Positions 7,485 to 61,908 of a DNA stretch of 64,000 nucleotides are shown here, in pieces. Position 1 is the first letter of the stretch, and each line of letters begins with the position of its first letter. The translations under genes and the position numbers were made by a program. Location: contig CBDEFO010000004.1 in assembly GCA_965237525.1 (NCBI GenBank), forward strand, positions 205,951 to 269,950. Direction: 5' to 3'. Under the pieces are notes generated by a model. It searched no databases and was not told the origin of the DNA. It was given only the letters and a program-made list of their open reading frames with translations. Source of the DNA: Candidatus Latescibacterota bacterium. GTDB taxonomy: Bacteria; Latescibacterota; CBDEFO01.

Positions 7485-7622
7485 CCCCTTAACATGCGAT
7501 CAGAATACCTCTACTGACAAGCAAAACCAGCTAACTCGACATCTTCGCCGTCCCAAGAGGAGCTGCCGCTTCATTGCCCCTCTCGAGCACTTACTTCGAG
7601 CTTACGCAGTCTCTCTTCAGAG

Positions 7623-10576: not shown

Positions 10577-10578
10577 CT

Positions 10579-24983: not shown

Positions 24984-25109
24984 AGATACTCAAAGTTCCC
25001 TTTAGCGTCTAAATCAGAGCAATAAAAGATAACAACTACTATATCTCTTGTCAAGCCTCTTAGCCAAAATTTTTTTGGAAAATTTTCTGGAATAATGAAT
25101 TGACTTTAG

Positions 25110-26629
25110 AAGCCTTGTGAAAAACCCTTAGATTCAGAAAGTAGTATAGAACAAGCATTGATAAAGCAGCTCCGATGTATTATATTATGTTATTGATAAT
25201 ATTATACATGGAGGAAACAATGACCCCACAAAAGCAGGAACAGACAAATCCGGTGTTTCACTATTTTCAGATGGAGGATTTAGTTCCCGAGGATCATATC
25301 CTTCGTCAGATTGATGAGGCAGTTGATTTTTCATTTGTACGAGACGTTGTATCAGATTGTTATTGCCCTGACAATGGCAGACCCGGTATTGATCCTGAAT
25401 TAGTTGTTCGAATGATCCTTATTGGCTATCTGTATAATTTGAGTGAGAATCGGCTCTGTCAGGAAGTGGGGATGCATGCGGCATATCGGTTGTTTTGTCA
25501 TCAGACATTTGATGATGCGGTTCCGGATAGGAGCACGATCAACAAGCTTCGCAATCACAAGTGGGCATCCAGTGGGTTGTTTGAACGGATAATGCGTCAG
25601 GTAGTCCAGTGTTGTATAGATGTCGGTGTTGTGAGCGGTAAACACCTTAGTGTCGACGGCACTCAGATACAAGCTGATGCTTCAGTGAAAAGTATTGAGC
25701 CGATAGAACCCCCTTTTTCTCTTGATGATTATCTCAAGGGAATCGGTTTTGAAGGTGATAAGACAAAGGGTAGGTCCCGGGCATCCTCAGGATAAAGACT
25801 TTCATGGTGAAAAGTGGACGAACCAAACACACCGTTCGACTACAGACCCCGACGCGCGCTTATACAGCAAATCGAAGGGCAAAGGGGCTTTTCTCTCGTT
25901 TATGGGCCATGATCTGATCGACACAAAAAGCAGAGTAATCCTTGAGACTCAGGGCACGCAGGCGACAGGGACAGCAGAGCCCGAAAGTGCCCTTAAGATG
26001 GTAGATGACCTTGAAACATACACCATGCCCAAAGACATTCAGACACTTAGTGCCGATACCGGTTACGGTTCTGGTAATTTTATCGCTGATGTACTTGACC
26101 GGGGAATCATACCCCATATTCCTCTGCGAGCCGATGAGAAGATTGAACCGATTCCTACATGGAAAAACAAGACAAATTCAGCACATATTCAGGCCGAACG
26201 GGATAGAAAAGTGCGAGAGGCGAAAGCCAGAAATCATGCACGGTCTATCTCATTAACAGCTGACTACAAACTCTCCCGGAGACTCCGTAAACGCAGTGAA
26301 CATATCTTTGCTGAAGCCAGGCAACAACACGGTATGGGACGAGCCCGTTACAGAGAACTAGCCTCACTGAATGAACAGTTGAATCTTGTTGCAACAGTAC
26401 AGAATCTCAAGAGGCTTGTATCTTTCATAAGAAGGGGGAAAGCGTCTATGTGTGCCCTGTCTGTCAAAGACAGTGCATCCTGTTCTTCAAACAGCTCCTA
26501 TTCCTTGCTGACCAGAACTCTGATAAGACTATTTTGCTTATTCCACAGCAAAACGATACGATATGCTACTCTTTGACCCATAATCGGCGCTTCAGACGCT
26601 GCCTGGGACATAACTATTTCACAAGGCTT
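25110..26629 (+). mobile_element. IS copy A (1520 bp; IS5/IS1182-like DUF772+DDE transposase, +1 frameshift), TSD TTAG
   Basis: Terminal IR AAGCCTTGTGAAA / TTTCACAAGGCTT. Flanking 4 bp direct repeat ttag (25106..25109 and 26630..26633). Transposase split into ORFs 25175..25795 and 25722..26576 by an extra C near 25780. Confidence 0.85.
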
Positions 26630-27149
26630 TTAGTGAATAGATCTTCCTTAGTCTCTATGTCATTTTTCTTTGCAATGAGCAAAGTGGCTGGCAAATCCGT
26701 GGTCAGCGTAGTACCTTGCATTTTCAAATAGTTCATCACCTCTCTATACAAGTTTATGACCTTTAGCTCGGAGTATTGTTCTTCCGCCAGATTTACCATC
26801 TTTTCCCTGGCCGACCCTGACAAAACCCAAGCGACCTTCTCTAAACCTACGGGAATGTTTCTGTTTTTTTCCAGCTCAAGCCACTTTACCATTTCATCCA
26901 AAATAGCCTCATAGTCCTCATGCACTTCAACTTCACCTGAACTGTCAAAGGAAGTGTTCCATTTGTTAGCCTTAGCGTAGAGTCGAGCTAGAACTGTTCC
27001 CATAGAGTCTTCCCCAGCACAGACCAATAACTTAATACTTTTCTCGGGGCCGGCCGACTTAAAAAAGAGGCCGATTTTCCCCACATCTTGCGAGAGTCTG
27101 AATATGGACCCTATGATCTTATACTTTTCCTCTTCCTTCTCCTCTCTAA

Positions 27150-28668
27150 AAGCCTTGTGAAAAACCCTTAGATTCAGAAAGCAGTATAGAACAAGCATTG
27201 ATAAAGCAGCTCCGATGTATTATATTATGTTATTGATAATATTATACATGGAGGAAACAATGACCCCACAAAAGCAGGAACAGACAAATCCGATGTTTCA
27301 CTATTTTCAGATGGAGGATTTAGTTCCCGAGGATCATATCCTTCGTCAGATTGATGAGGCAGTTGATTTTTCATTTGTACGAGACGTTGTATCAGATTGT
27401 TATTGCCCTGACAATGGCAGACCCGGTATTGATCCTGAATTAGTTGTTCGAATGATCCTTATTGGCTATCTGTATAATTTGAGTGAGAATCGGCTCTGTC
27501 AGGAAGTGGGGATGCATGCGGCATATCGGTTGTTTTGTCATCAGACATTTGATGATGCGGTTCCGGATAGGAGCACGATCAACAAGCTTCGCAATCACAA
27601 GTGGGCATCCAGTGGGTTGTTTGAACGGATAATGCGTCAGGTAGGCCAGTGTTGCATAGATGTCGGTCTTGTGAGCGGTAAACACCTTAGTGTCGACGGC
27701 ACTCAGATACAAGCTGATGCTTCAGTGAAAAGTATTGAGCCGATAGAACCCCCTGTTTCTCTTGATGATTATCTCAAGGGAATCGGTTTTGAAGGTGATA
27801 AGACAAAGGGTAGGTCCGGGCATCCTCAGGATAAAGACTTTCATGGTGAAAAGTGGACGAACCAAACACACCGTTCGACTACAGACCCCGACGCGCGCTT
27901 ATACAGCAAATCGAAGGGCAAAGGGGCTTTTCTCTCGTTTATGGGCCATGATCTGATCGACACAAAAAGCAGAGTAATCCTTGAGACTCAGGGCACGCAG
28001 GCGACAGGGACAGCAGAGCCCGAAAGTGCCCTTAAGATGGTAGATGACCTTGAAACATAGACCATGCCCAAAGACATTCAGACACTTAGTGCCGATACCG
28101 GTTACGGTTCTGGTAATTTTATCGCTGATGTACTTGACCGGGGAATCATACCCCATATTCCTCTGCGAGCCGATGAGAAGATTGAACCGATTCCTACATG
28201 GAAAAACAAGACAAATTCAGCACATATTCAGGCCGAACGGGATAGAAAAGTGCGAGAGGCGAAAGCCAGAAATCATGCACGGTCTATCTCATTAACAGCT
28301 GACTACAAACTCTCCCGGAGACTCCGTAAACGCAGTGAACATATCTTTGCTGAAGCCAGGCAACAACACGGTATGGGACGAGCCCGTTATAGAGGACCAG
28401 CCTCACTGAATGAACAGTTGAATCTTGTTGCAACAGTACAGAATCTCAAGAGGCTTGTATCTTTCATAAGAAGGGGGAAAGCGTCTATGTGTGCCCTGTC
28501 TGTCAAAGACAGTGCATCCTGTTCTTCAAACAGCTCCTGTTCCTTGCTGACCAGAACTCTGATAAGACTATTTTGCTTATTCCACAGCAAAACGATACGA
28601 TATGCTTCTCTTTGACCCATAATCGGCGCTTCAGACGCTGCCTGGGACATAACTATTTCACAAGGCTT
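27150..28668 (+). mobile_element. IS copy B (1519 bp), transposase with TAC>TAG nonsense, TSD CTAA
   Basis: Same IRs. TSD ctaa (27146..27149 and 28669..28672). Transposase ORF 27215..28060 stops at ...DDLET* where the intact copies read ...DDLETYTMPKD. Confidence 0.85.
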
Positions 28669-29419
28669 CTAAGTATACTTGGAGCCAAGAAGATAGGAAG
28701 CTCTGCTATGAGAGGAACATCGTCCTTAGCGAGCTCTTTTTTTATTTGGCCAAGATCAATGGCTATAGGCTCGGCTGTGAGCCTGATATCTTGTTTAAGA
28801 GACACAATTAAGGACTTGTACTCCTCCTTTAAGACCTTCAGATAGAGGAATTTTAATTCCTGGTTATTCATCATTATTGCTCCTTTAACCTGTCTTTAAC
28901 CTGTGGTCCCCTCTATAACTACTTTGGGTGTTACTGCTTCTCTATAATAAAGTATGACAAGCTTGTCTGCAAGCATTATTTAATGGTTAAAGAAATAGTA
29001 AGGTCTGGAAGGTGATTAAGAGATTAGAGCTATCTCAGGCTGTTAATCTTAATCAGAAAAGTACCCTGAGGAATATTCCTCCTAAGAATAACTAAGCTTC
29101 TATTTTTAATGTTCTTGTGCTTATTCATCATTTACAAACCTCTTGCTCTTAGATATCTTTTAGTTACGTAACTTTTCGTTATCCCATAGCACAACGGTGG
29201 TTGGCTGGTGTCTCTGCTGTAAGATCGTTCTGGCAAATGCCGGTCCCGGGGAACAGCCCGAACTGGATGATGGACTGTGTCGAGAAGATGTGCCGGAGAA
29301 CTTGGGCGAGGAATAAAGGGGATAAAAAAAGGTCGAAATATAATCCCTAATGAATGTGATATGGGGAATGTCGGTTTCTAACTAAAACGGTGAAGTTGAA
29401 TGAAAGGAGGTTGAAAAAG

Positions 29420-30232
29420 ATGAGTCTGTTCAGGGATGTAATACGAAGCATACATGGCTTCCTGTCTGATTCAGAATCAGAAGAGAAGCCAAAAGCCAAA
29501 CCTCGTATTCAAGAGCTTGCTACCCAGAGGGTTCAAGCCCTGCAAGGGAGATGGGAGGTTGTTGAGGCTCAGGTAAAGTTGGCGGCCCAAACACGTCAAG
29601 AGCTCAAAAAGCTCGTGGCAGAAGCCAAAGCCGTAGAAACGATTGGCATAAGAGCAATGGCTGCCAACAACAACAAGAAAGCGGAAGCTGCCCAGGCACG
29701 GTATGTAATTTTGCAGGAAACTATCCAGCAGATGACTACTCAAGCTCAGACTGCTGATCAAGAAGCCCAAGAGGCGTTGGTAAGCTTTAAGACGGAAGCC
29801 AATGCCGCCAGGAGATCAGTCTCAGAAGCCAAAGCCCTGGCTCAACTTGAGCACGTGCTAGAGCTTCAAAAGAAGCATCGGGCACTCGAAATAACACAGT
29901 CAACAGCGGCTGATGAGTTCGAAGAGGCCAAAGACCAGCTTCTTTTGGAGACATCAGTTCAGGCTGCTACCCAGAATATTCAGAAAGGAGAAGATGAACT
30001 GGCTGGGGAGATAGCGGCCGAATTACAAGATTTCAAGGCTCAACAGATCGGAGAAGAGTGGAGAAAGAGACTGGCTGAGGCGAATGGTAAAGTCGATGCT
30101 GAATTTGAGATTATAAGCAGCGATGCCAGTGAAGAGGCCATCCAATTTCTGGATCGACCTGTTTTGGGGGGCTTACTTGGTCATCAGGCCACTACTCCTG
30201 AAGACGAAGATTCAGAGGGTTCAAATGAGTAG
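29420..30232 (+). CDS. PspA/IM30 (Vipp1) family membrane-stress protein
   Basis: MSLFRDVIRS... N-terminal amphipathic helix. Long coiled coils (QELATQRVQALQ...). Acidic C-terminus. SD AGGAGG 7 nt upstream of ATG 29420. Confidence 0.7.
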   Translation: MSLFRDVIRSIHGFLSDSESEEKPKAKPRIQELATQRVQALQGRWEVVEAQVKLAAQTRQELKKLVAEAKAVETIGIRAMAANNNKKAEAAQARYVILQETIQQMTTQAQTADQEAQEALVSFKTEANAARRSVSEAKALAQLEHVLELQKKHRALEITQSTAADEFEEAKDQLLLETSVQAATQNIQKGEDELAGEIAAELQDFKAQQIGEEWRKRLAEANGKVDAEFEIISSDASEEAIQFLDRPVLGGLLGHQATTPEDEDSEGSNE

Positions 30233-30250
30233 GCAGCAGAAGGAAAGGGG

Positions 30251-30964
30251 GTGAGTATTATGACAGAGCTGCTCTATTGGTGGAACTTGATTTTTGTTCT
30301 ACCTTTTGTCGCAGCACTGTTCTACATCCTGCTACTGACTACTGGAACAGGAGCGGCCCACCATGGTCATGGAACAGATGTTGATCATGACGTCGATCAT
30401 GATGTGGGCATCGAACATGACGTAGCTGACACTGGCCATGATTTTGGACATGGTGTTGAGCACGGATGCGAGGCCGGAACCTTTTTAAGAGGCCTAAGCT
30501 TCCTGGGAATCGGAAGAGTTCCTGTCTCTATCATTGTGGTCTCTTTCTGTTTCATCTGGGGATTTAGTGGTTGGGCAAGCAATAGGATGTTAGACGAGAT
30601 TCTTCCAGCCACGTTGTTTTTCTGGCCATCGTTGGTTATCGCTCTTCTAGCCTCAGTATTTGTTACTCGCATTTTGGCCACAGGCATTTCAAAAATAATG
30701 CCGGCCACCGAGACGTATGCTGTTTCCGAAGGTCAGTTAACTGGCAGGATAGCCGAAGCGGTTACCAATATTGATGACAGTTTTGGCCAAGCCCAAGTTC
30801 ACGATGACTCAGGGTTCCTCCACACTATTTCCTCTCGGGTAAAACCGGGAGAGAAAAAAATTCCCCGGGGAACCCAGGTGGTACTTATGTATCACAACCA
30901 GGAAGAGCGCTTCTTTTTTGTAAACAGCGAGCTTCCGTCAACTGAAGGACTGACCGAGGAGTGA
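30251..30964 (+). CDS. NfeD-like membrane protein with His/Asp-rich loop and C-terminal OB-fold
   Basis: TM helices. Loop HHGHGTDVDHDVDHDVGIEHDVADTGHDFGHGVEHG. C-terminal NfeD-type beta domain (GQLTGRIAEAV...GTQVVLMYHNQEERFFFV). Precedes flotillin, as in yuaF-floT pairs. Confidence 0.6.
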   Translation: MSIMTELLYWWNLIFVLPFVAALFYILLLTTGTGAAHHGHGTDVDHDVDHDVGIEHDVADTGHDFGHGVEHGCEAGTFLRGLSFLGIGRVPVSIIVVSFCFIWGFSGWASNRMLDEILPATLFFWPSLVIALLASVFVTRILATGISKIMPATETYAVSEGQLTGRIAEAVTNIDDSFGQAQVHDDSGFLHTISSRVKPGEKKIPRGTQVVLMYHNQEERFFFVNSELPSTEGLTEE

Positions 30965-30998
30965 GTCAATTTACTCACCAGAAAAGAAAGGGGGAAAA

Positions 30999-32999
30999 AT
31001 GATGGGCGCACTAATAGTAGTTGTTGCCCTGGCCTTTGTCACTCTGCCTCTGGTTTCCAGCGACTATGTCCAGGGGATCAGCCAGATACTCATTGTTGGT
31101 TTTGGAGTTCTGCTGCTGGTGCTGGTATCGGGTATTCGCATTATAACCCGTCTCTACCGAAGAACAGCCGCAGACGAAGCGTTCGTGAGAACAGGAATGG
31201 GCGGGCAAAAAGTTATTATTGATGGCGGTGCTCTTGTTGTTCCTGCTGTACACGAATTAATTCCAGTATCCCTCAGCACCATGAGGCTTGATGTTGAAAG
31301 GACAGGACCCCATGCTCTTATTACTGGAGATAAACTCCGAGCTGACATCGAGGCAGAATTCTACATCAAGGTTCAGAAAGAAAGAGATGACGTGGTCAAT
31401 GCCGCAACCTCTCTTGGCGAGAGGTCGGTTACTCCAGAAAACGTCAAAGAGCTAGTTTTTGACAAGCTGGTTTCAGCACTCAGAACCGTTGCTGCTACCA
31501 AAGATCTTCATGATCTGAACGAGAAGCGGGATGAGTTTGCTCACGCGGTCCAGAACATAGTGGAAAAAGACCTCAAGCATAATGGTCTGACATTGGAGAC
31601 GGTCACTGTTTCAATGTTGGATCAGACCCCGCCGGATAAGATGCGGGCGGACTCAAACGTTTTTGACGCTGAAGGCACGAGGAAGATCGCTGAGATCACC
31701 CAGAAGATGCGGGTGGAAACAAACGCCATCGCGCGTAAGGCGGACAAGGAAGTCAAACAACAGGACGTTGAGAAGGATAAGTTCGTCTACACGCAAGAAC
31801 TTGGACGTGCCACTGCCGAGGCTATCCAAGACAGCGATATCCAACAAGCCCAAGCTGAAGCTGCGCAGAAAGCGGACACTTTCACTGCCGAGCAGGAAGA
31901 ACAAGCCCGCGTTCGTGAGGTAGAAAGAGACCAGGCCATCCAGGTTTCGGGAGTCGAAAAGGCAAAACAAATCCAGGTGGCTAATGAGCAGCGCGAGCAG
32001 GCCCAGCAAGAAGCTGCGATTAAGAAACAAAAGGCTGTGGCCGATAGAAACAAAGAGAAAGCCGAAGCTGAAGCTGCGCAGAAAGCGGCTGAGACTGAAC
32101 GCGAGAAAGAAGCTCAGAATGTACAGACCGTTGCCATCACTGAAGAGGCAAAACGGACGGCTGAAAAAGGGTACATTGCAAAAGCCCGAGAGATTGACCA
32201 AGATGCGTACGAAAAGGAGCGTCAAGCTGAAGCAGAGCGGGTAGCCGCTGCAAGAGAAGCCGAGGCTCGTAAGACAAAAGCTGTGGCTGAAAAGGAGGCT
32301 CTGACAGACGAGGCTGAAGGTAAGACTGCTAGCGAAATGGTTCCAGTCAACGTTGAAAGAAAGAAGGTTGAAGTTGAACAGTCTCGAGTCAACGATGTGA
32401 CCAAACCACAGTTGGCAGCCAAAGCTGAGTTCCAGGAAATCTCCGTAAAGCTCGAGCTTGGCCTGAAGAACATCGAGGTCAATGGTGAGGTTCAAAAAGC
32501 TTTTGCCGATGCTATGGGGCTATCTCTTAGCGAGGCTGATATGAACATCTTCGGTGACCCTACCACTCTGGGTAAAATGATGACCATGTTCAGGAACGGT
32601 CAAGCTCTTTCAACCGGAATTGATGGTTTCATGAAAAGTGTTGACCCGGATGCCCTTGGTCTCATCGGGGATATTGTCTCAGGTGTCAAAGACACTCTCA
32701 CTGGAATCTTCCAGGGTATCTTTGGTAAAACCCTAGAAGATAGTACTGTTCAGGCTCTGGCTGCTAAGATTACTGAACAGCCTGAGATTCTCGAGCAGAT
32801 CCAGGAGAAAGTAGTTTCGGCCCTCAAATCCCCGAGGGATGAAGCTGGGCTGGCTCAATACTTGGCTGCTACCTTTGGAGATGATTTTGATCTTAAGAGT
32901 GTTTCTGCTCTAATCGAAACCATCAAGGAGAAGCCGGCGATTCTTGGTCAGCTCAATCAAGCTTTTTCTAAACTTCAAGTCGCTGGTGCGACTGAGTAA
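30999..32999 (+). CDS. flotillin (SPFH/Band-7 domain) with long Glu/Ala/Lys-rich coiled coil
   Basis: N-terminal TM hairpin. SPFH domain (GGQKVIIDGGALVVP...). About 250 aa EA-rich coiled coil, then a C-terminal flotillin tail. Confidence 0.75.
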   Translation: MMGALIVVVALAFVTLPLVSSDYVQGISQILIVGFGVLLLVLVSGIRIITRLYRRTAADEAFVRTGMGGQKVIIDGGALVVPAVHELIPVSLSTMRLDVERTGPHALITGDKLRADIEAEFYIKVQKERDDVVNAATSLGERSVTPENVKELVFDKLVSALRTVAATKDLHDLNEKRDEFAHAVQNIVEKDLKHNGLTLETVTVSMLDQTPPDKMRADSNVFDAEGTRKIAEITQKMRVETNAIARKADKEVKQQDVEKDKFVYTQELGRATAEAIQDSDIQQAQAEAAQKADTFTAEQEEQARVREVERDQAIQVSGVEKAKQIQVANEQREQAQQEAAIKKQKAVADRNKEKAEAEAAQKAAETEREKEAQNVQTVAITEEAKRTAEKGYIAKAREIDQDAYEKERQAEAERVAAAREAEARKTKAVAEKEALTDEAEGKTASEMVPVNVERKKVEVEQSRVNDVTKPQLAAKAEFQEISVKLELGLKNIEVNGEVQKAFADAMGLSLSEADMNIFGDPTTLGKMMTMFRNGQALSTGIDGFMKSVDPDALGLIGDIVSGVKDTLTGIFQGIFGKTLEDSTVQALAAKITEQPEILEQIQEKVVSALKSPRDEAGLAQYLAATFGDDFDLKSVSALIETIKEKPAILGQLNQAFSKLQVAGATE

Positions 33000-33065
33000 A
33001 CCTAAAAACAGGGAACGCTGGGTCTTTTTAGGAGACCCTGCACTCTCCTCTTAAGGAGAAGAGCC

Positions 33066-33542
33066 ATGGAAGCAACACCTGGAGATGATATTAAGCCAAA
33101 GGTACTGGTGATTTCCTGCTCCGATGGTAGGTTTGCTCAAGCAAAGCAGCAGTTCCTAACTGAAGATTTAGAGCTTACAGTTTTTGACGAAGTTACTGTA
33201 CCGGGAGGGCCAGCCAGAGTTCTCATTTCCGGAACTAACTTCTTTGCGGTCCAGGATGATATAAAGATGCTTGCTAAGGCACACGCAACAGAAAGGGTAA
33301 TTGCCATTGCACATTTCGATTGTGCCTACTACCACAACAAGCATCCAAGATTAGAAGAAGAGGCAGACCTAAGGGAAAAGCAGAAAAATGACCTTCTTGA
33401 ATTTGCCGAGGAGATCAAGAATCTTGTTCCCAATGTCTTGGTGGAACTCTATCGGGAAAATGTTGAAGATGGCCAAGTAGTTTTCCGTGAGATTAAACCA
33501 ACAACTTTAGGAGGTGATGAAAATGGGCTGGTTGATACATAA
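33066..33542 (+). CDS. small beta-carbonic-anhydrase-like Zn-motif protein (CxDxR ... HxxC)
   Basis: VLVISCSDGRF and IAHFDCAYY reproduce the beta-CA Cys-Asp-Arg / His-x-x-Cys ligand pattern. At 158 aa the assignment is tentative. Confidence 0.3.
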   Translation: MEATPGDDIKPKVLVISCSDGRFAQAKQQFLTEDLELTVFDEVTVPGGPARVLISGTNFFAVQDDIKMLAKAHATERVIAIAHFDCAYYHNKHPRLEEEADLREKQKNDLLEFAEEIKNLVPNVLVELYRENVEDGQVVFREIKPTTLGGDENGLVDT

Positions 33543-34434
33543 CCCCATTGCCGATATGTATGGCCACGATTTTCTACTCTTTTACGGGGGCATCATTGTG
33601 CTGACGCTGGTAGCCTGTTGGCTGAAACTGCGTCAATCTGACCCGACGGCATCCATGCCCCTACCACCGGTCCCTTCCGAACCGAATCCCTATGAAACCG
33701 CTTACCTGCGCGGCGGGGAGAATGAAGTAACGCGAGTGGTAATCTTCGGCTTGACCCAGCGAGGATACTTACAGGTGACAGAGGAAGCGGACAAACGGAT
33801 AGAACAGGCGCCGGACCATCCTGACCCTGCCCACCTGCCCCAACTGGAACGCGCCGTGTTTGAAGCGTTACAAATACCCCTGAGCGCCGAGGACATCTTT
33901 AAAAGCGTGAGCTTGTCCTCCACGGTTCGGTCATACTGCACTACTTACGAGCAGACACTTCAGAACGAGCAATTACTCACAGCCGACGAGGTGAAGACGG
34001 CCGCCAAGAGAATCGGACTTACAGGGGCTGCGGTTATCTTCGGCTTGGGAGGTTACAAGCTACTCATCGCTTTAGCGAAGGGTTACTCCAACGTGGGTTT
34101 CCTTATTGTTATGGGCATTGTTTCGCTTGTAATTCTCTTCATAATTTGCGAGTCGGACCGTCTTAGCAGCAGGGGAAAGAAGTATTTGGAGCGTCTCCAG
34201 TTAGCATTCGAGCGGCTGAAGGGGTCTGCTGCCAGTGTCCCCTCTGCGGCGGTGGACTCAACTCTATTGCTGCTCGTGGGAGTCTTCGGCGTCGAACTGC
34301 TTGCGGGAACCCCCTACGCCTACTACCAAGAAATGTTCCAGAGGTCTTCGTCAGGTGGGGGATCTTGTGGCGCTGGCTGTGGCTCAGGTGGAGGAGACGG
34401 GTGTGGCGGCGGCTGCGGCGGCTGCGGGGAATAG
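33514..34434 (+). CDS. polytopic membrane protein with C-terminal Gly/Cys-rich tail (TIGR04222-like); putative MNIO substrate
   Basis: About 4 TM. C-terminal 27 aa SSSGGGSCGAGCGSGGGDGCGGGCGGCGE with 7 Cys. SD AGGAGGTG before the ATG cluster at 33514..33523. Stop lies 8 nt before the DUF692 start. Confidence 0.55.
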   Translation: MMKMGWLIHNPIADMYGHDFLLFYGGIIVLTLVACWLKLRQSDPTASMPLPPVPSEPNPYETAYLRGGENEVTRVVIFGLTQRGYLQVTEEADKRIEQAPDHPDPAHLPQLERAVFEALQIPLSAEDIFKSVSLSSTVRSYCTTYEQTLQNEQLLTADEVKTAAKRIGLTGAAVIFGLGGYKLLIALAKGYSNVGFLIVMGIVSLVILFIICESDRLSSRGKKYLERLQLAFERLKGSAASVPSAAVDSTLLLLVGVFGVELLAGTPYAYYQEMFQRSSSGGGSCGAGCGSGGGDGCGGGCGGCGE

Positions 34435-34442
34435 TGAGAACT

Positions 34443-35285
34443 ATGGAAGGTATACTTTCACATCTGCCGGCATTGGGCGTTGGTCTAGGTTTTCGCGAGC
34501 CGTTCCGCAGTGACCTCTTTCTGCACCAAAAGAAGGTTGACTTTCTTGAGATCACGGCGGATCACTATCTCGATGCGCCGCCAGAGAAGGAGCAAGAGCT
34601 GGAATTGCTCTCAGAGCATTTCACGCTCATCCCGCATGGGATCAACCTGTCCCTGGGAAGCGCTGAGGGAGTAGATGCCGCTTACGTTCGTAAGCTGGCA
34701 GCACTCATTCGGCGGCTGAATCCACCGTGGTGGAGTGAACACATCGCCTTCACGCAAGCGGGCGGTGTGGACATCGGGCATTTGTCACCTTTGCCCTTCA
34801 CGCGCGAGGCGGTGGAGGTGCTTTCCCACAACATTGAAGCCGTGCGCCGCCAAATTGACGTGCCACTGATTTTAGAGAACATCACCTACTTGGTGCCCAT
34901 ACCAGGTGCGGAGATGACCGAAGCTGAGTTCCTGAGGGAAGTGCTGGAGCATACCGATTGCGGGCTGTTGTTAGATGTCACTAACCTACACATTAATGCT
35001 GTCAACTACGCCTATGACGTTCAGGCGTTTTTAGAGCAATTGCCATTGGAGCGCATAGTGCAGCTTCACTTCGTTGGAGGACATTGGCATAACGGTGTGA
35101 TCATTGACAGCCACTCGCAACCAACACCGCCTGAGGTGTGGACACTTATGGAAGCAGTCGTCGCTCATGCGCCGGTGAAAGGGATCATTCTGGAGCGGGA
35201 TGAGAACATACCTCCGTTTGAAGAACTGCTAGGAGAGATAGAACAGGCACGCTCCATTGGAAGACAGCACGAACGATGGGATTAG
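34443..35285 (+). CDS. DUF692 family protein (MbnB/TglH-like multinuclear non-heme iron oxidative enzyme, MNIO)
   Basis: Start at MEGILSHLP (ATG 34443; the annotated ORF start at 34365 gives an implausible Arg/Trp-rich leader). TIM-barrel xylose-isomerase-like fold, with the conserved blocks characteristic of DUF692 proteins (LGVGLGFREP, EHF..IPHGINLSLGS, LILENITYL, LLDVTNLHINA). Confidence 0.7.
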   Translation: MEGILSHLPALGVGLGFREPFRSDLFLHQKKVDFLEITADHYLDAPPEKEQELELLSEHFTLIPHGINLSLGSAEGVDAAYVRKLAALIRRLNPPWWSEHIAFTQAGGVDIGHLSPLPFTREAVEVLSHNIEAVRRQIDVPLILENITYLVPIPGAEMTEAEFLREVLEHTDCGLLLDVTNLHINAVNYAYDVQAFLEQLPLERIVQLHFVGGHWHNGVIIDSHSQPTPPEVWTLMEAVVAHAPVKGIILERDENIPPFEELLGEIEQARSIGRQHERWD

Positions 35286-35977
35286 CGCAGATACAGCGAG
35301 TTTTGAGCCAGCTTTACACCGATGATGTCTTGCGGGAACGTTTCTTTGCGGATCCACAAGCGGTAGGTGAAGTGTTGGGACTTAGTTCTGCTGAGACACA
35401 TCAGCTTGCTCAACTATCAGCCCAGCATGTCAACTTCTTCGCCAGGTCACTGAAGCGCAAACGGCTAAACGTAGTGTGCAAACTGCTGCCGCTCACGCAT
35501 CGAGTGTTGGGTAAGCGATTTTCCGGGCTTTTCCTTCAATATGCCGATACCCATGTGCCGATGGGGACGAAGAAACATCGAGAAGATGCCGGTGCTTTCT
35601 CTAAATTTGTCGAACAGGCCGCTCGTGTGGACGGCATTGAACCGCCTTGGATCATGGAGCTAGTTCGTTACGAAGCGTCGTGTCTGGAAGCAGCGGACAC
35701 AACTTGCTGGTGGATAATGCGCTGGTTTCGTTACCCCCCAGTTAAGCTGGTGCGAAGTTTGATGCAGGGTGATGGAGCCCCATTGCCATTGGCGCAGCCT
35801 ACTATTGCTCTCTGGTTTCGCTTCTCGCGGCGAAATCGGCTTCGGCATATCGCTCTGACGCTGCCGCGTCCATTCATAGGCAAAAGCGAGGCGTACATAG
35901 GCCAGCAACTTCGGAGGCATCCCTGGACCGTTAGGATTACTTGCCATAGAGACATGGAAATCACAGGAATGAAATAG
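35276..35977 (+). CDS. DUF2063-like partner protein of the MNIO (MbnC/TglI-type)
   Basis: Overlaps the DUF692 stop by 10 nt. N-terminal region matches the DUF2063 pattern (RF..YRN-like RERFFADP..., helical bundle). Typical gene order DUF692 then DUF2063. Confidence 0.5.
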   Translation: MGLAQIQRVLSQLYTDDVLRERFFADPQAVGEVLGLSSAETHQLAQLSAQHVNFFARSLKRKRLNVVCKLLPLTHRVLGKRFSGLFLQYADTHVPMGTKKHREDAGAFSKFVEQAARVDGIEPPWIMELVRYEASCLEAADTTCWWIMRWFRYPPVKLVRSLMQGDGAPLPLAQPTIALWFRFSRRNRLRHIALTLPRPFIGKSEAYIGQQLRRHPWTVRITCHRDMEITGMK

Positions 35978-36076
35978 AGTTAAGATCATCTTCTATCTTT
36001 CTCTGTGTCTTTGTGGTCAAATGGATTAACCCGACGATTAAGGGTCACTACCAAATAATCTAGCTCTTTGTTATAG

Positions 36077-36106
36077 GGGAAGTCCCAGTGACTTCCCTTT
36101 TTTATT
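36077..36106 (+). terminator. rho-independent terminator of the PspA..DUF2063 operon
   Basis: GGGAAGTC-CCAGT-GACTTCCC followed by TTTTTTATT. Confidence 0.65.
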
Positions 36107-36465
36107 ACAATATCTGACCTGGGGGTAGCTAGAGGCCCAGTCATCCGACTGGGCAAGGAATTGCCCGTACAATGTGCAGCCAAAATAGGCAGAGGGCTGT
36201 GAACAGTACAATGTTTGGAAGACAGACGAGACAGAACTTACTGGAGAAGACAGATGGAAGGGCAAGAACTTAGTGTTCTGGAATAGGCTTACTTGATACT
36301 AACAGATAGCTACGCAGGTACCACGGGTACGACCACTACGAGGTCCTCTATAGTAACTTTTCAAAAAAACAAAGGGAAATGGAAATAATAAAGTTTGTGT
36401 GCGTGCCCTCGTACTGGTCGTACTTGCAAAAAAGAAGGGGCAAGATTAAAGAGGTTTTTTTGTGA

Positions 36466-36523
36466 TTGACATCTGAAGCAAAGTTTTGTATCTTTTTCTT
36501 TGAAACTGTGATCTATGTCACAG
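36466..36523 (+). promoter_or_regulatory. sigma70-like promoter (TTGACA-17-TATCTT) with downstream 18 bp palindrome CTGTGATCTATGTCACAG
   Basis: -35 at 36466..36471, -10 at 36489..36494. Perfect inverted repeat 36506..36523 (possible operator) upstream of ORF 36657. Confidence 0.4.
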
Positions 36524-36656
36524 ATTCCTTCAGAGCTACTGATTAAGGTATAGCAAATGGCAAATGAAGGATAGCAAATTCATAGCCAGAGTCTTCGATG
36601 CCAATACACAGGTTATTTCCGGAAGACTTTCCTCGGACTATCGGAAGTAGGTTACT

Positions 36657-37592
36657 ATGCTGATTGCGACTGAAACGACTCTATACTTTCAGGAAGGGGG
36701 CGGGAATCAGAATTCTCCCTCGGTACGATTAGAAAGGGAGGGCATAGAGCGTGTTGAGGAAGGAGTCCAATCTGAGGTTATAGCGCTGGCGAGCGGGGAG
36801 ATCGTTCTCCTTTCCAAAGACGAATTACAGCGCATCTCCACCGGGATCGAAGATCCTATCGAATCGCTGGCGATTCTGCATGAAGGCCCCCTGGATCTGT
36901 TGATCGGCACAGAGGGACCGCATCTCTACAGGCTTTCAGGCGACGCCGGCGCAGTCCAGTGTATCCCTTCGTTTGAGGCGCTGGACTGCCGCAAGGAGTG
37001 GTACACGCCGTGGGGTGGGCCCGCATCCGTCCGAAGCCTTGCCTGTACAAAAGATGGTTGGGTCTACGCCGATATCCACGTGGGGAGCATCATGCGCTCT
37101 TCCGACCGGGGAGACTCGTGGGAGCCTGTTACGCCAGACCTGTACAAGGACGTCCACCAGGTGGCGACCTGTCCAGAGTCGGATCGCCGGATCTATGCGA
37201 ACACGGCCAACGCTGTCTATCTCAGCGAAGATCGAGGGCAGTCGTGGCTGCACCGCGCAGACGGGATGAGAGAACGCTACGGTAGGGCTATCGCCGTCCA
37301 TCCCACGGATCCCGACTGTCTCCTTGCGACTGCCAGCCACGGTCCCGGCGGAGACGTTCAGGGCCAGCTCTACCGGTCAGAAGATGCGGGGTTGACCTGG
37401 GCGCATGTCACGGAGGGATTCCCGACATCCACAAGGAAAAACATCGATACCTTCCACGTCGCCTTTTCGTCCGAAGGCCTTGCGTGGGCGGTTGTGGAAG
37501 CGACCCTGTTCGTGAGTCAGAACCGCGGTAGGAGTTGGGAATCTTTCTGGGAGGCCCCGGAGCAGATCATCATGATCTCTTGTCGGCGCTGA
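36657..37592 (+). CDS. BNR/Asp-box repeat protein (sialidase / Ycf48-like beta-propeller)
   Basis: Repeated SxDxGxTW motifs (SEDRGQSW, SEDAGLTW, SQNRGRSW). Confidence 0.55.
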   Translation: MLIATETTLYFQEGGGNQNSPSVRLEREGIERVEEGVQSEVIALASGEIVLLSKDELQRISTGIEDPIESLAILHEGPLDLLIGTEGPHLYRLSGDAGAVQCIPSFEALDCRKEWYTPWGGPASVRSLACTKDGWVYADIHVGSIMRSSDRGDSWEPVTPDLYKDVHQVATCPESDRRIYANTANAVYLSEDRGQSWLHRADGMRERYGRAIAVHPTDPDCLLATASHGPGGDVQGQLYRSEDAGLTWAHVTEGFPTSTRKNIDTFHVAFSSEGLAWAVVEATLFVSQNRGRSWESFWEAPEQIIMISCRR

Positions 37593-37691
37593 CGGCAAGT
37601 AAGAACAGGAACAACATAATAAAAAGAAGCGATTGCTTCGCCCATCCACTTGGTGGTTTGCCGGCATTTCGTGCCCCCTGCAATCACCCCC

Positions 37692-37713
37692 CTGTATCCC
37701 CCCTTGATAAGGG
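37692..37713. repeat. small palindromic repeat CTGTATCCCCCCTTGATAAGGG (second copy at 63927..63957)
   Basis: Near-identical palindromic hairpin sequence at two distant intergenic sites. Confidence 0.4.
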
Positions 37714-37822
37714 AGGAATGAAAGGGGCGTGGCAGCAACGCACACAGTGCCCACGCCCCCCAACGATTCTATCGGCGGTTTATCCCGAAGCAATCTCAAC
37801 CCCTACAGATTCGGCGGATATT

Positions 37823-38425
37823 ATGTTGAACAAAGAGGAATGCCTGAGGAAAATAGCCGAATGCCGCACCCAGGAGATAGTCATAACGACTATGGGAACG
37901 GCAAGACCCTGGGCGAGTGTTTCGCATCACGATTTAGATTTCGCTTCGGTGGGTAATGCAATGGGTCACGCTGCGGATTTTGCCCTGGGGATAGCCTTGG
38001 CACGCCCCGAAAGGAGAGTTATCTGCATCAACGGAGACGGGAGCCTGCTTATGAGTCTGGGAATATTGGTGACTGTAGCCAATCTCGCCCCTAAGAACTA
38101 CGTGATGGTCGTCTTTGAGAACGGGACTTACGAAGTGACGGGAAACCAGCCGATACCGGGCGCAGGAAATTCCAGCCTGGCACAGATGGCAAGAGGGGCC
38201 GGTTTAGAGCAGGTCTATGAGTTCAGCCAGATAGACGAATTTGAAGGACAGATCGCCCAGATATTAAAAGCAGAGGGTCCGGTCTTCTTGAGTCTAGAGG
38301 TAGAGCCCGGAGACGAGGATCCTCCGATGAGGAGAGCGGACCATCCAGCGTGGTATCTTACAAATACACTTAGCGAAGATGCACTTGCGTTGAAGAAGAA
38401 GTTGGAATCTTCATTCCCTACCTAG
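37823..38425 (+). CDS. thiamine-pyrophosphate enzyme, C-terminal TPP-binding domain protein (sulfopyruvate/phosphonopyruvate decarboxylase beta-subunit-like)
   Basis: GDGS Mg-TPP motif (ICINGDGSLLMSLG). About 200 aa stand-alone PP-binding domain. Start at MLNKEECL 37823. Confidence 0.55.
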   Translation: MLNKEECLRKIAECRTQEIVITTMGTARPWASVSHHDLDFASVGNAMGHAADFALGIALARPERRVICINGDGSLLMSLGILVTVANLAPKNYVMVVFENGTYEVTGNQPIPGAGNSSLAQMARGAGLEQVYEFSQIDEFEGQIAQILKAEGPVFLSLEVEPGDEDPPMRRADHPAWYLTNTLSEDALALKKKLESSFPT

Positions 38426-40250
38426 CGGGAATGAGAGGCAGCAAGACATGCGAAGTATGTCCCCTGTCATGATATACCGTGTTCTGAGCTATCACAAGCC
38501 TCCTCTCACAGCCGAGCGGACCGCCCGTGTTCGGATTTACGTCGAATCTCGGGAAATTGCTGCTTGAGACATCTACCCTTATCCTGTGACCCTTCTTGAA
38601 CAGGTTGGACGTAGGATACATCACGATCTCGAATCTGTATATCTTTCCCGGTTGCATCAATTCCGCACTTTCTCTGGAGTTCCTGTAGCGGGCCCTTATT
38701 ATGCTGTCGGAGATGTTCATATCGAACCCCGAAGGATAGTCCTCATTGGGAGGATATACGTCTAAAAGCTTGACCGTAAAGTCCGTATCCAGGGCAGATG
38801 AAGACGCCCAAAGCACGAATGTAAGTGGCCCCGTAACCTCAACTTCCTTTTCCAAGACATCAGTTTGGAATACCAATACATCGTTCCTTGCCGAAAGGGG
38901 CATACTATCCCTGCAACCCAAGAAATCTTCCCTTCCTCTCTGATCGAACGCCCCTGCCGGTATCACGTCATCTGCGGCTGATATATTGCCCCCGATAGTC
39001 GGCACAGGATCGCGCGGATCGAAAGTGTAGCTGCTTGGAGGATCGTCATCCGGGACATCGGTAGAGAGGCGTCCGTCCAGATGGATGTAATACTTAGTAT
39101 ATATAGTCCTTTCCAAAGGCCATTGGTTCTCAAACCTCCACCTGCCGCCGTGATTTAGCCCTTCGTCTATAGTCTTCCTGCCGTCACCTCCTCCCATAAC
39201 GAATATTTTGACCGGTGGATCGTCCATAATCCCCGTATCCAATCCCTTGAGATTGTAGTCGAACCACCTTAACCTGAAATCGTTGTAGTCCAGAGCGGCA
39301 TCTGCGCCGAACTCCACATCACCGCAGCGGGACAATTCCAAAGTCTGCGCGCCGTGCGACCAGGGACCCATAATCAGCCTTATCGGCTCCTTTTTCATAG
39401 TGGACAGGCGCACATAATTGTCCGTCGTGGCTCTCGTGTAAGAGTCGTACCATCCCCCTAAGTAGTACGCAGGCACATCGGCGTGTTCGTCATAGTATTC
39501 CTCGATGCTGTATCCCCTCTGTTTCCAATACTCATTATAGTCCCCTGTGGTCATGATGTCCAGTATCCACTGCTCATAAGTTGGGAAGAGACTCAAAGGC
39601 GAAGTCCCCTTCCCGTGCGGGTGTCTGGTCAGCCAATGTCCTACGTTCCTGTAGGCCTGCTCAGCAGCTGCCCTTTTAGCGGGGTCTTTCAAGGCCTCCT
39701 TGCTTGATAAGGCCATGCGAAAGGCATAGACGAAGAACGTGAGTTCACATGCCCCGTTGTGCCTCATAGAACAGGTGTGATAGTTAGATGCCCCCTCGCT
39801 TACGAACATGCACTTTAGATGAGGCGGATTCATAGTGGCCAGAGCGCTTTGATCGCTTCCGCTGTAGGAAAGACCCATAGTCCCCACCTGGCCATCGCAC
39901 CACTTCTGTTGCGCTATCCACTCGACTGCGTCGTACCCATCTGGCGCCTCATTTGCAAAGGCATACCATACGCCTTCAGAATCGAATCTGCCTCTGACAT
40001 CCTGGATGGCGACCACATAACCCCTTCGGGCGAAGTAGTTGCCGCTTTTGACCATATCCAGCCTTATCTGTTTGCCGTACGGACTCCGCTCCAAAATGGC
40101 CGGGAATCTCCCCTTCGCAGGACTACCCTCCAGCGCGGGAAAATAGATGTCCGTCGCCAATTTCACACCGTCCCGCATTGACACAATCACGTTCCTCTCT
40201 ACGACCACTTCATACTGCTGATGCGAGCCCTGTCTGCCAGAATCTGACAT
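38418..40250 (-). CDS. CocE/NonD family alpha/beta hydrolase (X-Pro dipeptidyl-peptidase S15-like)
   Basis: 610 aa. N-terminal alpha/beta-hydrolase with nucleophile Ser in GLSYSG, plus a C-terminal beta-sandwich. Confidence 0.7.
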   Translation of the reverse strand: MSDSGRQGSHQQYEVVVERNVIVSMRDGVKLATDIYFPALEGSPAKGRFPAILERSPYGKQIRLDMVKSGNYFARRGYVVAIQDVRGRFDSEGVWYAFANEAPDGYDAVEWIAQQKWCDGQVGTMGLSYSGSDQSALATMNPPHLKCMFVSEGASNYHTCSMRHNGACELTFFVYAFRMALSSKEALKDPAKRAAAEQAYRNVGHWLTRHPHGKGTSPLSLFPTYEQWILDIMTTGDYNEYWKQRGYSIEEYYDEHADVPAYYLGGWYDSYTRATTDNYVRLSTMKKEPIRLIMGPWSHGAQTLELSRCGDVEFGADAALDYNDFRLRWFDYNLKGLDTGIMDDPPVKIFVMGGGDGRKTIDEGLNHGGRWRFENQWPLERTIYTKYYIHLDGRLSTDVPDDDPPSSYTFDPRDPVPTIGGNISAADDVIPAGAFDQRGREDFLGCRDSMPLSARNDVLVFQTDVLEKEVEVTGPLTFVLWASSSALDTDFTVKLLDVYPPNEDYPSGFDMNISDSIIRARYRNSRESAELMQPGKIYRFEIVMYPTSNLFKKGHRIRVDVSSSNFPRFDVNPNTGGPLGCERRLVIAQNTVYHDRGHTSHVLLPLIPAR

Positions 40251-44783: not shown

Positions 44784-44843
44784 TCCCCAATAACACTACG
44801 GACTCAAATTAACCTGTCAGTTTATGAACAAGGAGTTCTGAAG

Positions 44844-45836: not shown

Positions 45837-45924
45837 TGATACTTGGACAGGATATTCCCCAGAGGCAAAAATTCCATTATGAACTCATATTAACCTCTCA
45901 TTTTATCAACAAAGAGTTCTGACG

Positions 45925-46924: not shown

Positions 46925-47000
46925 TGATACTTGGACAGGATATTCCCCAGAGGCAAAAATTCCATTTTGAACTCATATTAACCTCTCAATTGATCAGCCG

Positions 47001-55475: not shown

Positions 55476-55605
55476 AATCCTCCGTTTTTCTCCAAGAAGT
55501 TCTTAGATACCCCTCTCAAAGGGCCAAGACATCACCCCTGGTTGCTTCTTCTACCTCTCATCTAAAATTAACATCAAAAATTCTGTGGCGTCAAGGACTA
55601 TCTAA

Positions 55606-57124: not shown

Positions 57125-57150
57125 CTAAACTGGAAGGCAAATAAGAAATA

Positions 57151-61883: not shown

Positions 61884-61908
61884 TTAAGTCGGTATATGCT
61901 TTTTTTGC

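Follow-up and report, generated by a model that had tools for sequence, protein, structure and literature searches.

We consider it probable that the seven genes described here (g1-g7) represent two independent, previously described modules that a recent exchange of a cassette brought together in a single strain lineage. The genes lie within the window, a 64,000-nt stretch of a Candidatus Latescibacterota contig. Module A (g1-g4) encodes a divergent PspA-like protein and an NfeD-like YqiJ protein, followed by a long flotillin of the SPFH type and a member of the Pro_CA_2 family, while module B (g5-g7) encodes a membrane protein of the TIGR04222 family whose tail is rich in Gly and Cys, followed by an MNIO enzyme and the partner of that enzyme. 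As the cassette swap joined the modules in this strain lineage only, the pairing does not constitute a conserved new system and is best explained as a strain-level regulatory accident or convenience.

Gene layout and transcription signals

All seven open reading frames are present on the plus strand, with spacings from g1 to g7 of 18, 34, 66, -20, 8 and -10 nt. This confirms the collinear, tightly packed arrangement given in a preliminary description of the sequence, whose positive gaps of 19, 35 and 67 nt were each one nucleotide too high. The features are:

27147..28678, +, IS element copy immediately ahead of the operon; transposase frame broken into parts of 281 and 183 aa
29131..29159, +, weak sigma-70-like promoter candidate TTTACA-17-TATCTT (consensus scan)
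29403..29410, +, Shine-Dalgarno sequence of g1, AAAGGAGG, read from the sequence, 9 nt before the g1 ATG
29420..30232, +, g1, 270-aa soluble all-helical protein, divergent PspA/IM30 (ESCRT-III superfamily)-like by remote homology
30251..30964, +, g2, YqiJ-family (NfeD-like) membrane protein with a His/Asp-rich loop (Pfam YqiJ_N)
30999..32999, +, g3, 666-aa long flotillin/YqiK-type SPFH protein (Pfam Band_7)
33017..33041, +, hairpin in the g3-g4 spacer, lacking a U-run and not a canonical terminator
33066..33542, +, g4, 158-aa Pro_CA_2 (beta-carbonic-anhydrase-like) protein (Pfam Pro_CA_2)
33508..36360, +, strain-variable cassette of 2853 bp with g5-g6-g7, the terminator and a unique stretch of 255 nt (BLASTN against sister strain L165)
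33509..33514, +, Shine-Dalgarno sequence AGGAGG of g5, with which the cassette opens; spacing to the ATG at 33523 is 8 nt
33523..34434, +, g5, TIGR04222 membrane protein (NCBIfam TIGR04222)
34351..34431, +, Gly/Cys-rich C-terminal tail of g5, presumed MNIO substrate region
34443..35285, +, g6, MNIO (DUF692) enzyme (PF05114)
35276..35977, +, g7, MNIO partner of the SCO6045_C or 'PME-type 2' kind (PF26136)
36075..36106, +, rho-independent terminator with a 10-bp stem (36075-36099), five G-C pairs and a T-run, inside the cassette

The terminator previously noted after g7 was confirmed. Its stem is followed by UUUUUUAUU, the folding z-score is -2.99, and none of 200 shuffled sequences folded equally well; no other convincing terminator was found within the cluster. 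The 66-nt g3-g4 spacer contains a hairpin (-23 kcal/mol for a 78-nt stretch), which was rejected as a canonical terminator because of its missing U-run and a z-score of -1.41. A search for a sigma-54 or sigma-70 promoter ahead of g1 had been proposed. The candidate at 29131..29159 is the sole sigma-70-like site on the plus strand between 28600 and 36359 and is conserved in L165 (positions 8130-8158), whereas no sigma-54-like site was found upstream of g1. The number of sigma-70-like sites was not above chance (4 found versus 7.1 expected, using an E. coli-type consensus). Scanning with this type of consensus revealed neither a promoter-like nor a terminator-like site between g4 and g5, and no promoter of module B's own; an internal promoter may be located within g4. 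Because the g4 stop codon lies within g5, no such site separates the two genes and the only strong terminator follows g7, a single transcription unit spanning g1-g7 is plausible, and co-transcription of both modules appears likely from these sequence features. Module B, with no detectable promoter and with its own ribosome-binding site and terminator, would thus most likely depend for its expression on read-through from the promoter of module A.

Module A resembles a membrane-scaffolding operon

No direct Pfam, PDB or PspA match was obtained for g1. Its AF2 model consists of helices at residues 2-20, 26-81 and 85-225, and hhalign comparison of a nine-member family alignment (A7) with PspA/Vipp1 gave a probability of 93%, in register, over columns 1-174 versus 1-176. 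In addition, one distant family member matches PF04012 at 8e-5. The earlier PspA/IM30 label therefore holds as remote homology, but not as a direct match. The g1 family is very small (11 matches among 1.84 billion representatives), and every close relative keeps g1 ahead of YqiJ-flotillin.

The other three genes bore out their first labels, namely NfeD-like with a His/Asp-rich loop, flotillin and beta-CA-like. g2 matches YqiJ_N (5.1e-12, 46.5 bits versus a cut-off of 23) and has three hydrophobic segments and a loop with 9 His and 8 Asp in 45 residues, whose DHD-rich character is conserved in close homologues; translation may instead begin at the ATG at 30260, the start assigned in the sister genome. 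g3 matches Band_7/SPFH at 5.6e-18, and its homologues carry the source names YqiK or flotillin; the FloT equivalog model scored far below its cut-off. g4 matches Pro_CA_2 (6.6e-12, 46.2 bits versus a cut-off of 30), and its beta-CA zinc motifs CSDGR (C18-S-D-G-R22) and HFDC (H83-F-D-C86) are invariant in alignment A3. The order g1-g2-g3 occurs in all seven close flotillin relatives with enough upstream DNA, and g2-g3 in 46 of 84 flotillin loci. g4 follows flotillin in L165 and, as a 54% identical homologue, in locus L081. Module A is best explained as a membrane-scaffolding or repair operon.

Module B is a TIGR04222-MNIO-partner cluster

The product of g5 matches TIGR04222 at 5.7e-33 (114.5 bits versus a cut-off of 43), contains four hydrophobic segments and ends in the tail GGGSCGAGCGSGGGDGCGGGCGGCGE. 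Five cysteines (282, 286, 294, 298 and 301) fall within the last 22 residues, in agreement with its description as a Cys-tail membrane protein, and a comparison of 41 homologues shows the tail motif G-C-G-G-C-G to be conserved. We place the start at the ATG at 33523, following AGGAGG; a start at the GTG at 33514 is less probable. The DUF692 assignment of g6 was verified by PF05114 (8.7e-88 over the full model). With 237 bits against the BufB model (2e-70; equivalog cut-off 310) and 223 against the HvfB model (cut-off 360), g6 scores as close to these maturases without being an equivalog; its PDB relatives are 3bww and TglH (8hci). For g7, the proposed DUF2063 identity had to be rejected, as none of 13 family members gave a DUF2063 match in Pfam. 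The precomputed match is instead PF26136 (SCO6045_C), corresponding to the literature's 'PME-type 2' MNIO partner, and the protein carries an NHLP-like N-terminal motif (1.8e-6).

The order g5-g6-g7 occurs in about 55 of 78 TIGR04222 genome loci, where the g7-type partner always directly follows the MNIO gene, and g5-g6-g7 are 30-75% identical to these clusters. They are found in Cyanobacteria, Acidobacteria, Armatimonadota, Planctomycetota, Actinomycetota, Bacteroidota and other phyla. From the related clusters of PMC12452194, the g5 tail is presumed to be the MNIO substrate. By analogy with the bufferin enzymes, the iron-dependent MNIO and its partner would convert the tail cysteines of the TIGR04222 protein into metal-binding heterocycles.

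Module B occupies a strain-variable site

BLASTN of the window against L165 showed 97.7% identity over 29037-33507 and 93.5% over 36361-38843, and no match between 33507 and 36361. Exactly where module B sits in the window, L165 carries a 1311-bp segment with a single Nramp gene. The aligned junctions place the breakpoints at 33507/33508 and 36360/36361. The cassette has a GC content of 0.527 versus 0.485 in g1-g4; its module begins with a ribosome-binding site at the g4 stop codon. The last 11 codons of g4 derive from the cassette side of the junction, and g4 encodes 158 aa in the window versus 147 aa in L165. Either Nramp or module B may have been the ancestral occupant of the site.

The pairing is not conserved

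A synteny check, as proposed in the preliminary description, showed that the gene order is not conserved. None of 84 flotillin-anchored loci contained g5, g6 or g7, and none of 78 TIGR04222-anchored loci had g1-g4 upstream. The closest TIGR04222 relatives have other neighbours and no flotillin. The seven-gene order was limited to one strain lineage, comprising the window and L166, a contig from a second sample (99.6% identical, 45 mismatches). It had been suggested that the modified membrane protein functions in flotillin microdomains, or that PspA buffers the envelope stress of its production. This is unsupported, since the adjacency is unique to this strain lineage and L165 has Nramp in place of g5-g7.

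A selected functional coupling, in which the flotillin/YqiJ scaffold has the TIGR04222 protein as a client or the PspA-like protein buffers its membrane stress, is in our judgement unlikely. It would fit the overlap of g4 and g5, the lack of a terminator before g7 and the cooperation of PspA and SPFH proteins in other operons (PMC11237479, PMC8581546). It would also fit an independent adjacency in two Xenococcaceae cyanobacteria, where a TIGR04222-MNIO-partner-YqiJ-flotillin series lies on a single strand, its genes 33-200 nt apart, in a different order and with a distant flotillin that is only 28-30% identical to g3. However, g1-like and g4-like genes are absent there. The pairing is further missing from 76 of 78 TIGR04222 loci, from all 84 flotillin loci and from the related Pleurocapsales genomes L060 and L069, and the genes downstream of flotillin are otherwise heterogeneous. 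As the Xenococcaceae case exceeds a chance expectation of roughly 0.01-0.03 among the lineages sampled (a rough estimate, not a computation), some selective benefit of co-location is hinted at, and the modules may share a weak functional affinity.

Still less probable is a metal-handling 'cargo slot' after g4. In this reading, membrane proteins with a metal-related role would replace one another at the site, be it a divalent-metal importer of the Nramp type or a Cys-tail protein whose maturation depends on an iron enzyme, and would act together with the His/Asp-rich YqiJ loop and the zinc-site Pro_CA_2 protein. Nramp and module B share the exact site, and in both cases a separate Shine-Dalgarno sequence directly follows g4; the g2 loop is rich in His and Asp, with DHD repeats conserved in close homologues, g4 retains the beta-CA zinc ligands, and bufferins, products of related MNIOs, bind copper (PMC12452194). 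Yet all these links are circumstantial, no metal theme emerges downstream of flotillin in 25 other loci (Nramp, MNIO and Pro_CA_2 are all absent), the proteins encoded after g4 in L081 are acidic and unrelated, and the Xenococcaceae YqiJ loops contain no His.

The window holds five IS copies of about 1.53 kb that are 99% identical (self-BLAST). The copy at 27147..28678 is missing from L166, and IS insertions upstream of g1 differ among three strains; the neighbourhood of the operon is therefore plastic. An assembly chimera at the g4-g5 junction, which such copies might favour and for which an ENA contig of the same sample ending inside g3 (L079) could be cited, is effectively refuted, as the g3-g4-g5 junction is present in L079 itself (99.99% identical) and in L166, and neither breakpoint carries an IS. 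Its presence in a second sample shows that the arrangement is real.

Relation to known systems

Both modules have already been described; their juxtaposition alone is undescribed, as had been supposed, since none of the papers searched links MNIO/DUF692 to flotillin, SPFH or PspA. TIGR04222-MNIO-'PME-type 2' clusters were reported in 2025 (Leprevost et al., Microb Genom, PMC12452194). They share with module B the gene order, a TIGR04222 protein above the NCBIfam cut-off with a C-terminal Gly/Ser/Cys tail, an MNIO near the bufferin-type enzymes and a partner without DUF2063 signature. In contrast, module B shows no detectable promoter of its own and is attached to the 3' end of an operon for flotillin; that paper and its supplements mention no flotillin, SPFH, PspA, NfeD or Nramp neighbours. 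Bufferin clusters (BufA precursor, BufB MNIO, BufC DUF2063 partner) likewise combine a closely related MNIO, a partner directly downstream and Cys-rich targets. They differ in the g7 family and the sub-equivalog BufB score of g6, and the putative substrate here is a 303-aa polytopic membrane protein without signal peptide, whereas bufferin is a small secreted peptide.

For module A, PspA and NfeD-flotillin had been named as known modules, consistent with the PspA/YjfJ-Band-7/flotillin-YqiJ/YuaF operons of Ravi et al. (mSystems 2024, PMC11237479). E. coli yqiJK and B. subtilis yuaF-floT group with these as the closest known systems. Unlike them, module A has a g1 too divergent for the PspA_IM30 model, lacks a CesT/Tir chaperone or AAA+ ATPase gene and carries an extra Pro_CA_2 gene after flotillin. 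The B. subtilis pspA-ydjGHI operon, linked to membrane stress handling (PMC8581546), differs in its accessory proteins and SPFH subtype and has no YqiJ and no link to a peptide- or protein-modifying enzyme; like module A, it unites PspA with an SPFH protein.

A seven-gene cluster with a single terminator

The cluster and the signals around it comprise the following features:

29420-35977, plus strand: seven collinear open reading frames, g1 to g4 (PspA-like, YqiJ, flotillin/SPFH and Pro_CA_2; module A) and g5 to g7 (TIGR04222, MNIO and MNIO partner; module B)
29131-29159, plus strand: weak sigma-70-like site
33523: most likely ATG start codon of g5, 8 nt past AGGAGG
36075-36099: 10-bp stem of an intrinsic terminator, followed by a U-run

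With the best-supported start codons, the spacings from g1 to g7 are 18, 34, 66, -20, 8 and -10 nt; g4 and g5 are thus overlapping genes, and the MNIO gene g6 begins 8 nt 3' of g5. These positions bear out the seven-gene layout of the preliminary description, whose counts were off by one. The sequence AAAGGAGG lies just 5' of g1. The terminator that had been proposed after g7 was recovered, with a folding z-score of -2.99 and none of 200 shuffles folding equally well. The 66-nt spacer between g3 and g4 contains a hairpin without a U-run (z -1.41), and no promoter or terminator signal was found internally in g1-g7. On the plus strand between 28600 and 36359, the weak sigma-70-like site is the only one of its kind, and this count is not above chance. 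Of the two promoter types suggested before g1, the sigma-70 type is represented by this weak candidate. No sigma-54-like site was found in 28870-29420, and the count of such sites in the whole window is below chance. An Rfam scan of the window returned only one tRNA and no structured RNA, riboswitch or leader near the cluster. Judged by these sequence signals, it is plausible that g1-g7 form a single operon.

The MNIO cassette is replaced by an Nramp gene in a sister genome

Clustered at 90% identity, g3 and g4 have fellow members on a 4.54 Mb contig from the same sample, and g5 has none there. In this sister genome (L165), the gene order is g1, YqiJ, flotillin, Pro_CA_2 and a single Nramp gene, after which follow the same BNR/sortilin-like, TPP-enzyme and PepX genes as behind the window cluster. 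The two DNAs are 97.7% identical over window positions 29037-33507 and 93.5% over 36361-38843; nothing aligns between. On the left, the breakpoint coincides exactly with the stop codon of g4: here the sister genome has ...ACTTAA, then a ribosome-binding site of its own and the ATG of Nramp, and the window has ...ACTTTAGGAGGTGATGAAAATG. In consequence, g4 is extended by 11 codons and overlaps g5. On the right, the breakpoint lies 255 nt beyond the terminator. Given these breakpoints, the window-specific segment of 2853 bp (the cassette) comes with a ribosome-binding site of its own, three genes and the terminator; no promoter was recognised in it. At 0.527, its GC content is slightly higher than in g1-g4 (0.485) and close to that of Nramp (0.531). 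No flanking repeats marking a mobile element were found at the left cassette end. A 34-nt imperfect inverted repeat (36327-36360 and 36390-36423, 74% complementary) straddles the right breakpoint; one arm is unique to the cassette, and the other lies in sequence that the sister genome shares.

An assembly chimera was ruled out by a contig from a different sample (L166), which carries the seven-gene version with 45 mismatches over 11.8 kb (99.6% identity). The comparison with the 97.7%-identical sister genome shows that the MNIO cassette was exchanged, in whichever direction, as a unit without a promoter.

Linkage of the two modules is not conserved

The preliminary description had coupled the membrane genes to the MNIO genes as one system. 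As a conserved system, this coupling did not hold: beyond the Nramp gene in the sister strain, the seven-gene linkage was absent from both of our comparison sets. The first was anchored on TIGR04222 and comprised 78 loci, taken from bacterial genomes at one genome per species and including, as far as the contigs reached, up to 10 kb of flanking DNA per side. The g5-g6-g7 trio occurs in the same order in about 55 of these loci, and tblastn and custom HMMs detected relatives of g1-g4 upstream in none (0/78). As the retrieval left out the closest relatives, these were looked up separately. A 58%-identical g5 homologue in a 5.66 Mb genome of the same sample sits after TctA/TctB, and no flotillin neighbours were found beside three further g5 homologues of about 55% identity. 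The second set was anchored on flotillin (n = 84 loci). Here, the YqiJ-flotillin pair, with g2 encoded directly 5' of the SPFH gene, is present in 46 loci, and the g1-g2-g3 triad in all seven close flotillin relatives with enough upstream DNA. A g4 relative occurs in a single locus (L081), and g5, g6 and g7 in none (0/84). In 25 other flotillin loci, the downstream genes are heterogeneous; a general 'metal cargo' theme behind flotillin genes was not seen there.

Both parts have been described before, PspA with Band-7/flotillin and YqiJ/YuaF (PMC11237479) and TIGR04222-MNIO with PME-type 2 partners (PMC12452194). In agreement with the earlier remark that their fusion is undescribed, a link between a flotillin-type operon and an MNIO cluster was found neither in PMC12452194 and its supplements nor in the other literature searched. 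Modules A and B are two modules, each of known kind, and not one system.

The linkage recurs once in another order. In two Xenococcaceae cyanobacteria (L054 and L058), TIGR04222, MNIO, partner, YqiJ and a canonical flotillin are encoded on the same strand, 33-200 nt apart. Since this flotillin shares only 28-30% identity with g3 and the gene order is reversed with respect to the window, we regard the arrangement as an independent event. As a rough estimate, about 0.01-0.03 such cases would be expected by chance, assuming that each genome of about 5000 genes has a single such pair and that the independent lineages number a few dozen. The signal for coupling is nevertheless thin, because it comes from one lineage only, the related Pleurocapsales L060 and L069 lack the TIGR04222-flotillin linkage, and no g1-like or g4-like gene was found in the Xenococcaceae clusters. 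The idea that the modified membrane protein functions in flotillin microdomains gains one recurrence and is at odds with the 84 flotillin and 78 upstream comparisons.

Module A encodes a putative divergent PspA-like protein, YqiJ, a long SPFH protein and a Pro_CA_2 protein

The direct assignment of g1 to PspA/IM30 failed, as the protein had no match in Pfam, NCBIfam, the PDB (phmmer) or with a 4-sequence profile, and PF04012 (PspA_IM30) did not match g1 and its close homologues even at E<=10. An exhaustive HMMER search identified 11 g1 relatives among 1.84 billion representatives, and PF04012 was matched by one distant family member only (8.1e-5). A remote relationship did emerge from profile comparison. 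While a shallow 6-sequence g1 alignment reached only 5.9% probability against PspA in hhalign, the g1 family alignment of nine sequences gave 93% (E 3.5e-7) against a PspA/Vipp1 alignment, an approximate reference of three sequences; columns 1-174 and 1-176 matched in register, spanning helices alpha0-alpha3. Searched against the PDB, the family profile found Vipp1 sll0617 in register at an E of only 0.15. The AF2 single-sequence model of g1 (pLDDT 77.7) places helices at residues 2-20, 26-81 and 85-225, a layout that resembles the short N-terminal helix and long hairpin expected of PspA. Foldseek with this model returned Vipp1, PspA, Shrub and CdvB at E 0.09-0.23 amid many other coiled coils and was non-specific. 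Despite the absence of a direct match, the remote profile match and the one PF04012 match lead us to label g1, with moderate confidence, as a putative divergent PspA-like protein. A by-product of this analysis is a small, very divergent PspA-like family that is always encoded 5' of YqiJ-flotillin.

The NfeD-like, flotillin and beta-carbonic-anhydrase-like assignments of the next three products proved sound, all scoring above the Pfam cut-offs. g2 matches YqiJ_N (46.5 bits, cut-off 23), and its C-terminal residues 150-237, where an NfeD-type OB-fold would lie, had no Pfam match. Residues 36-80 (window 30356-30490) contain nine His and eight Asp in 45 residues, with DHD repeats. A His/Asp-packed loop, cytoplasmic or periplasmic, is also present in the YqiJ homologues of L165 and three comparison loci (L081, L082 and L084), and the Xenococcaceae loops contain Asp/Glu only. 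The loop of the g2 type may be a metal-binding feature. g3 matches Band_7 (SPFH; 66.1 bits, cut-off 23.6), with hydrophobic segments at 1-19 and 30-48, N-terminal to the SPFH domain, and its homologues carry the source names YqiK or flotillin. Because its score against the FloT equivalog NF058507 is far too low (48.8 bits, cut-off 700) and the Flot domain PF15975 was not matched in Pfam, we classify g3 as a YqiK-like long SPFH protein and not as FloT itself.

g4 is a predicted beta-carbonic-anhydrase-like protein of the Pro_CA_2 family (PF20393, 46.2 bits, cut-off 30), in which the beta-CA zinc ligands (CxDxR ... HxxC) appear as CSDGR and HFDC, invariant in the g4 alignment. A word-index search for homologues returned g4 itself only, and a metagenome scan with the g4 alignment returned none. 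In L081, the only distant genome with Pro_CA_2 after flotillin, the next two genes (9856-11694) encode paralogous, highly acidic proteins of about 300 aa with no Pfam match.

Module B encodes a Cys-tailed TIGR04222 protein, an MNIO and its partner

The product of g5, earlier described as a Cys-tail membrane protein, matches TIGR04222 (114.5 bits, cut-off 43), adjoins the MNIO gene and has four hydrophobic segments and five Cys in its last 22 residues; this Gly/Cys low-complexity tail is kept across 41 homologues. The DUF692 (MNIO) identity of g6 was likewise upheld by a full-length PF05114 match (8.7e-88, model positions 1-261 of 263), with 3bww, 8hci (TglH) and 7dz9 (MbnB) as relatives in the PDB. 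g6 is related to the BufB and HvfB equivalogs, but scores below both (237.1 against a cut-off of 310, and 222.8 against 360).

For g7, DUF2063 ('PME-type 1') had to be abandoned: no such signature was found in g7 or 12 homologues at E<=1, and no partner structure was found, the g7 family profile retrieving neither NGO1945 nor TglI from the PDB. Its precomputed annotation is PF26136 (SCO6045_C), and the AF2 single-sequence model (pLDDT 42.7) was too poor for a fold search. The 'PME-type 2' MNIO partners are a class defined by the absent DUF2063 signature (PMC12452194), for which a DUF2063-like helical fold is expected, and since g7 directly follows the MNIO gene and carries no such signature, it would fit this class. 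Residues 3-60 of g7 (window 35276-35460) resemble nitrile-hydratase-like leader peptides (NF038399, 1.8e-6; TIGR04509, 7e-4), and NHase alpha chains in the PDB are weakly matched by the g7 family profile as well (0.018); such a leader-like motif is odd in a partner protein.

Some TIGR04222 loci deviate from the trio. In L167-L169 (ENA ERZ17993755 and others), a TIGR04222 protein 55% identical to g5 (gene 5686-6789) is followed by an overlapping radical SAM/SPASM gene, with no MNIO; Cys-tail proteins of this family may therefore also be served by another maturase class. In L080, the closest complete-genome relative, the MNIO gene (10854-11722) is broken into pieces of 243 and 45 aa, through either a frameshift or a sequencing error, and this copy may be inactive. 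Two TIGR04222 genes lie in or beside one locus in L021, L025, L029, L064, L069, L074 and L075; five of these genomes have the pair 5' of one MNIO gene only, L069 has its second copy behind the partner gene, and no MNIO was matched in L064.

Possible functions of the combined locus

In the best-supported reading, module A would act as a membrane scaffold and repair operon, and module B would be a protein-modification cassette in which, in analogy to the maturation of bufferins (PMC12452194), the MNIO and its partner modify the cysteines in the TIGR04222 tail. Because insertion or exchange placed module B at the 3' end of the module A operon, it would in this strain lineage be transcribed via read-through from module A, as far as sequence signals indicate. 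The functional coupling of the MNIO cassette to the flotillin operon is not conserved and most likely incidental. The locus illustrates that tight spacing and a common terminator alone do not show a conserved functional system.

That module B interacts functionally with flotillin, or that a common metal theme exists, is possible but unsupported. Three features might hint at metals, namely Nramp in its role of alternative cargo, the His/Asp-rich loop of g2 and the predicted zinc site in g4. In a more specific version, which we consider improbable, the site after flotillin/Pro_CA_2 would be a docking site for swappable membrane 'client' cassettes (Nramp or TIGR04222-MNIO), and the Cys-tail TIGR04222 protein would be active within the flotillin/YqiJ scaffold or owe its assembly to it, perhaps to handle metals. 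If true, the Xenococcaceae clusters would represent this partnership a second time, and the uncharacterised TIGR04222 branch of MNIO substrates would gain its first functional context. The locus provides a natural near-isogenic strain pair, cassette versus Nramp, and the cyanobacterial recurrence a second independent example of a flotillin-linked TIGR04222 gene; together, they make a link of TIGR04222 to membrane scaffolds or metals cheaply testable.

Local plasticity around the cluster

The region 5' of the operon is an insertion hot spot. Within 400-750 nt 5' of g1, the three strains show three different IS states:

L165 (sister genome), 6773-8035, corresponding to window position ~29040: IS3-type insertion
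Window, 27150-28667: extra 1.5 kb IS copy
L166 (second-sample contig): neither of the two, one of the upstream IS copies of the window being absent

The IS of about 1.53 kb is present in five copies in the window and encodes a DDE transposase of 466 aa:

25104-26633, plus strand: IS copy
27147-28678, plus strand: IS copy
47703-49229, minus strand: IS copy
55595-57128, minus strand: IS copy
60355-61887, minus strand: IS copy

The first two are near-tandem just 5' of the operon, the nearest having a split transposase frame. As all five copies are mutually 99% identical, they point to a recent IS expansion in this genome. Further downstream, the adjacent segments of about 1.8 kb at 44802-46561 and 45883-47639 share 76% identity and apparently arose by tandem duplication; they cover the genes at 44844-45836 and 46160-46924.
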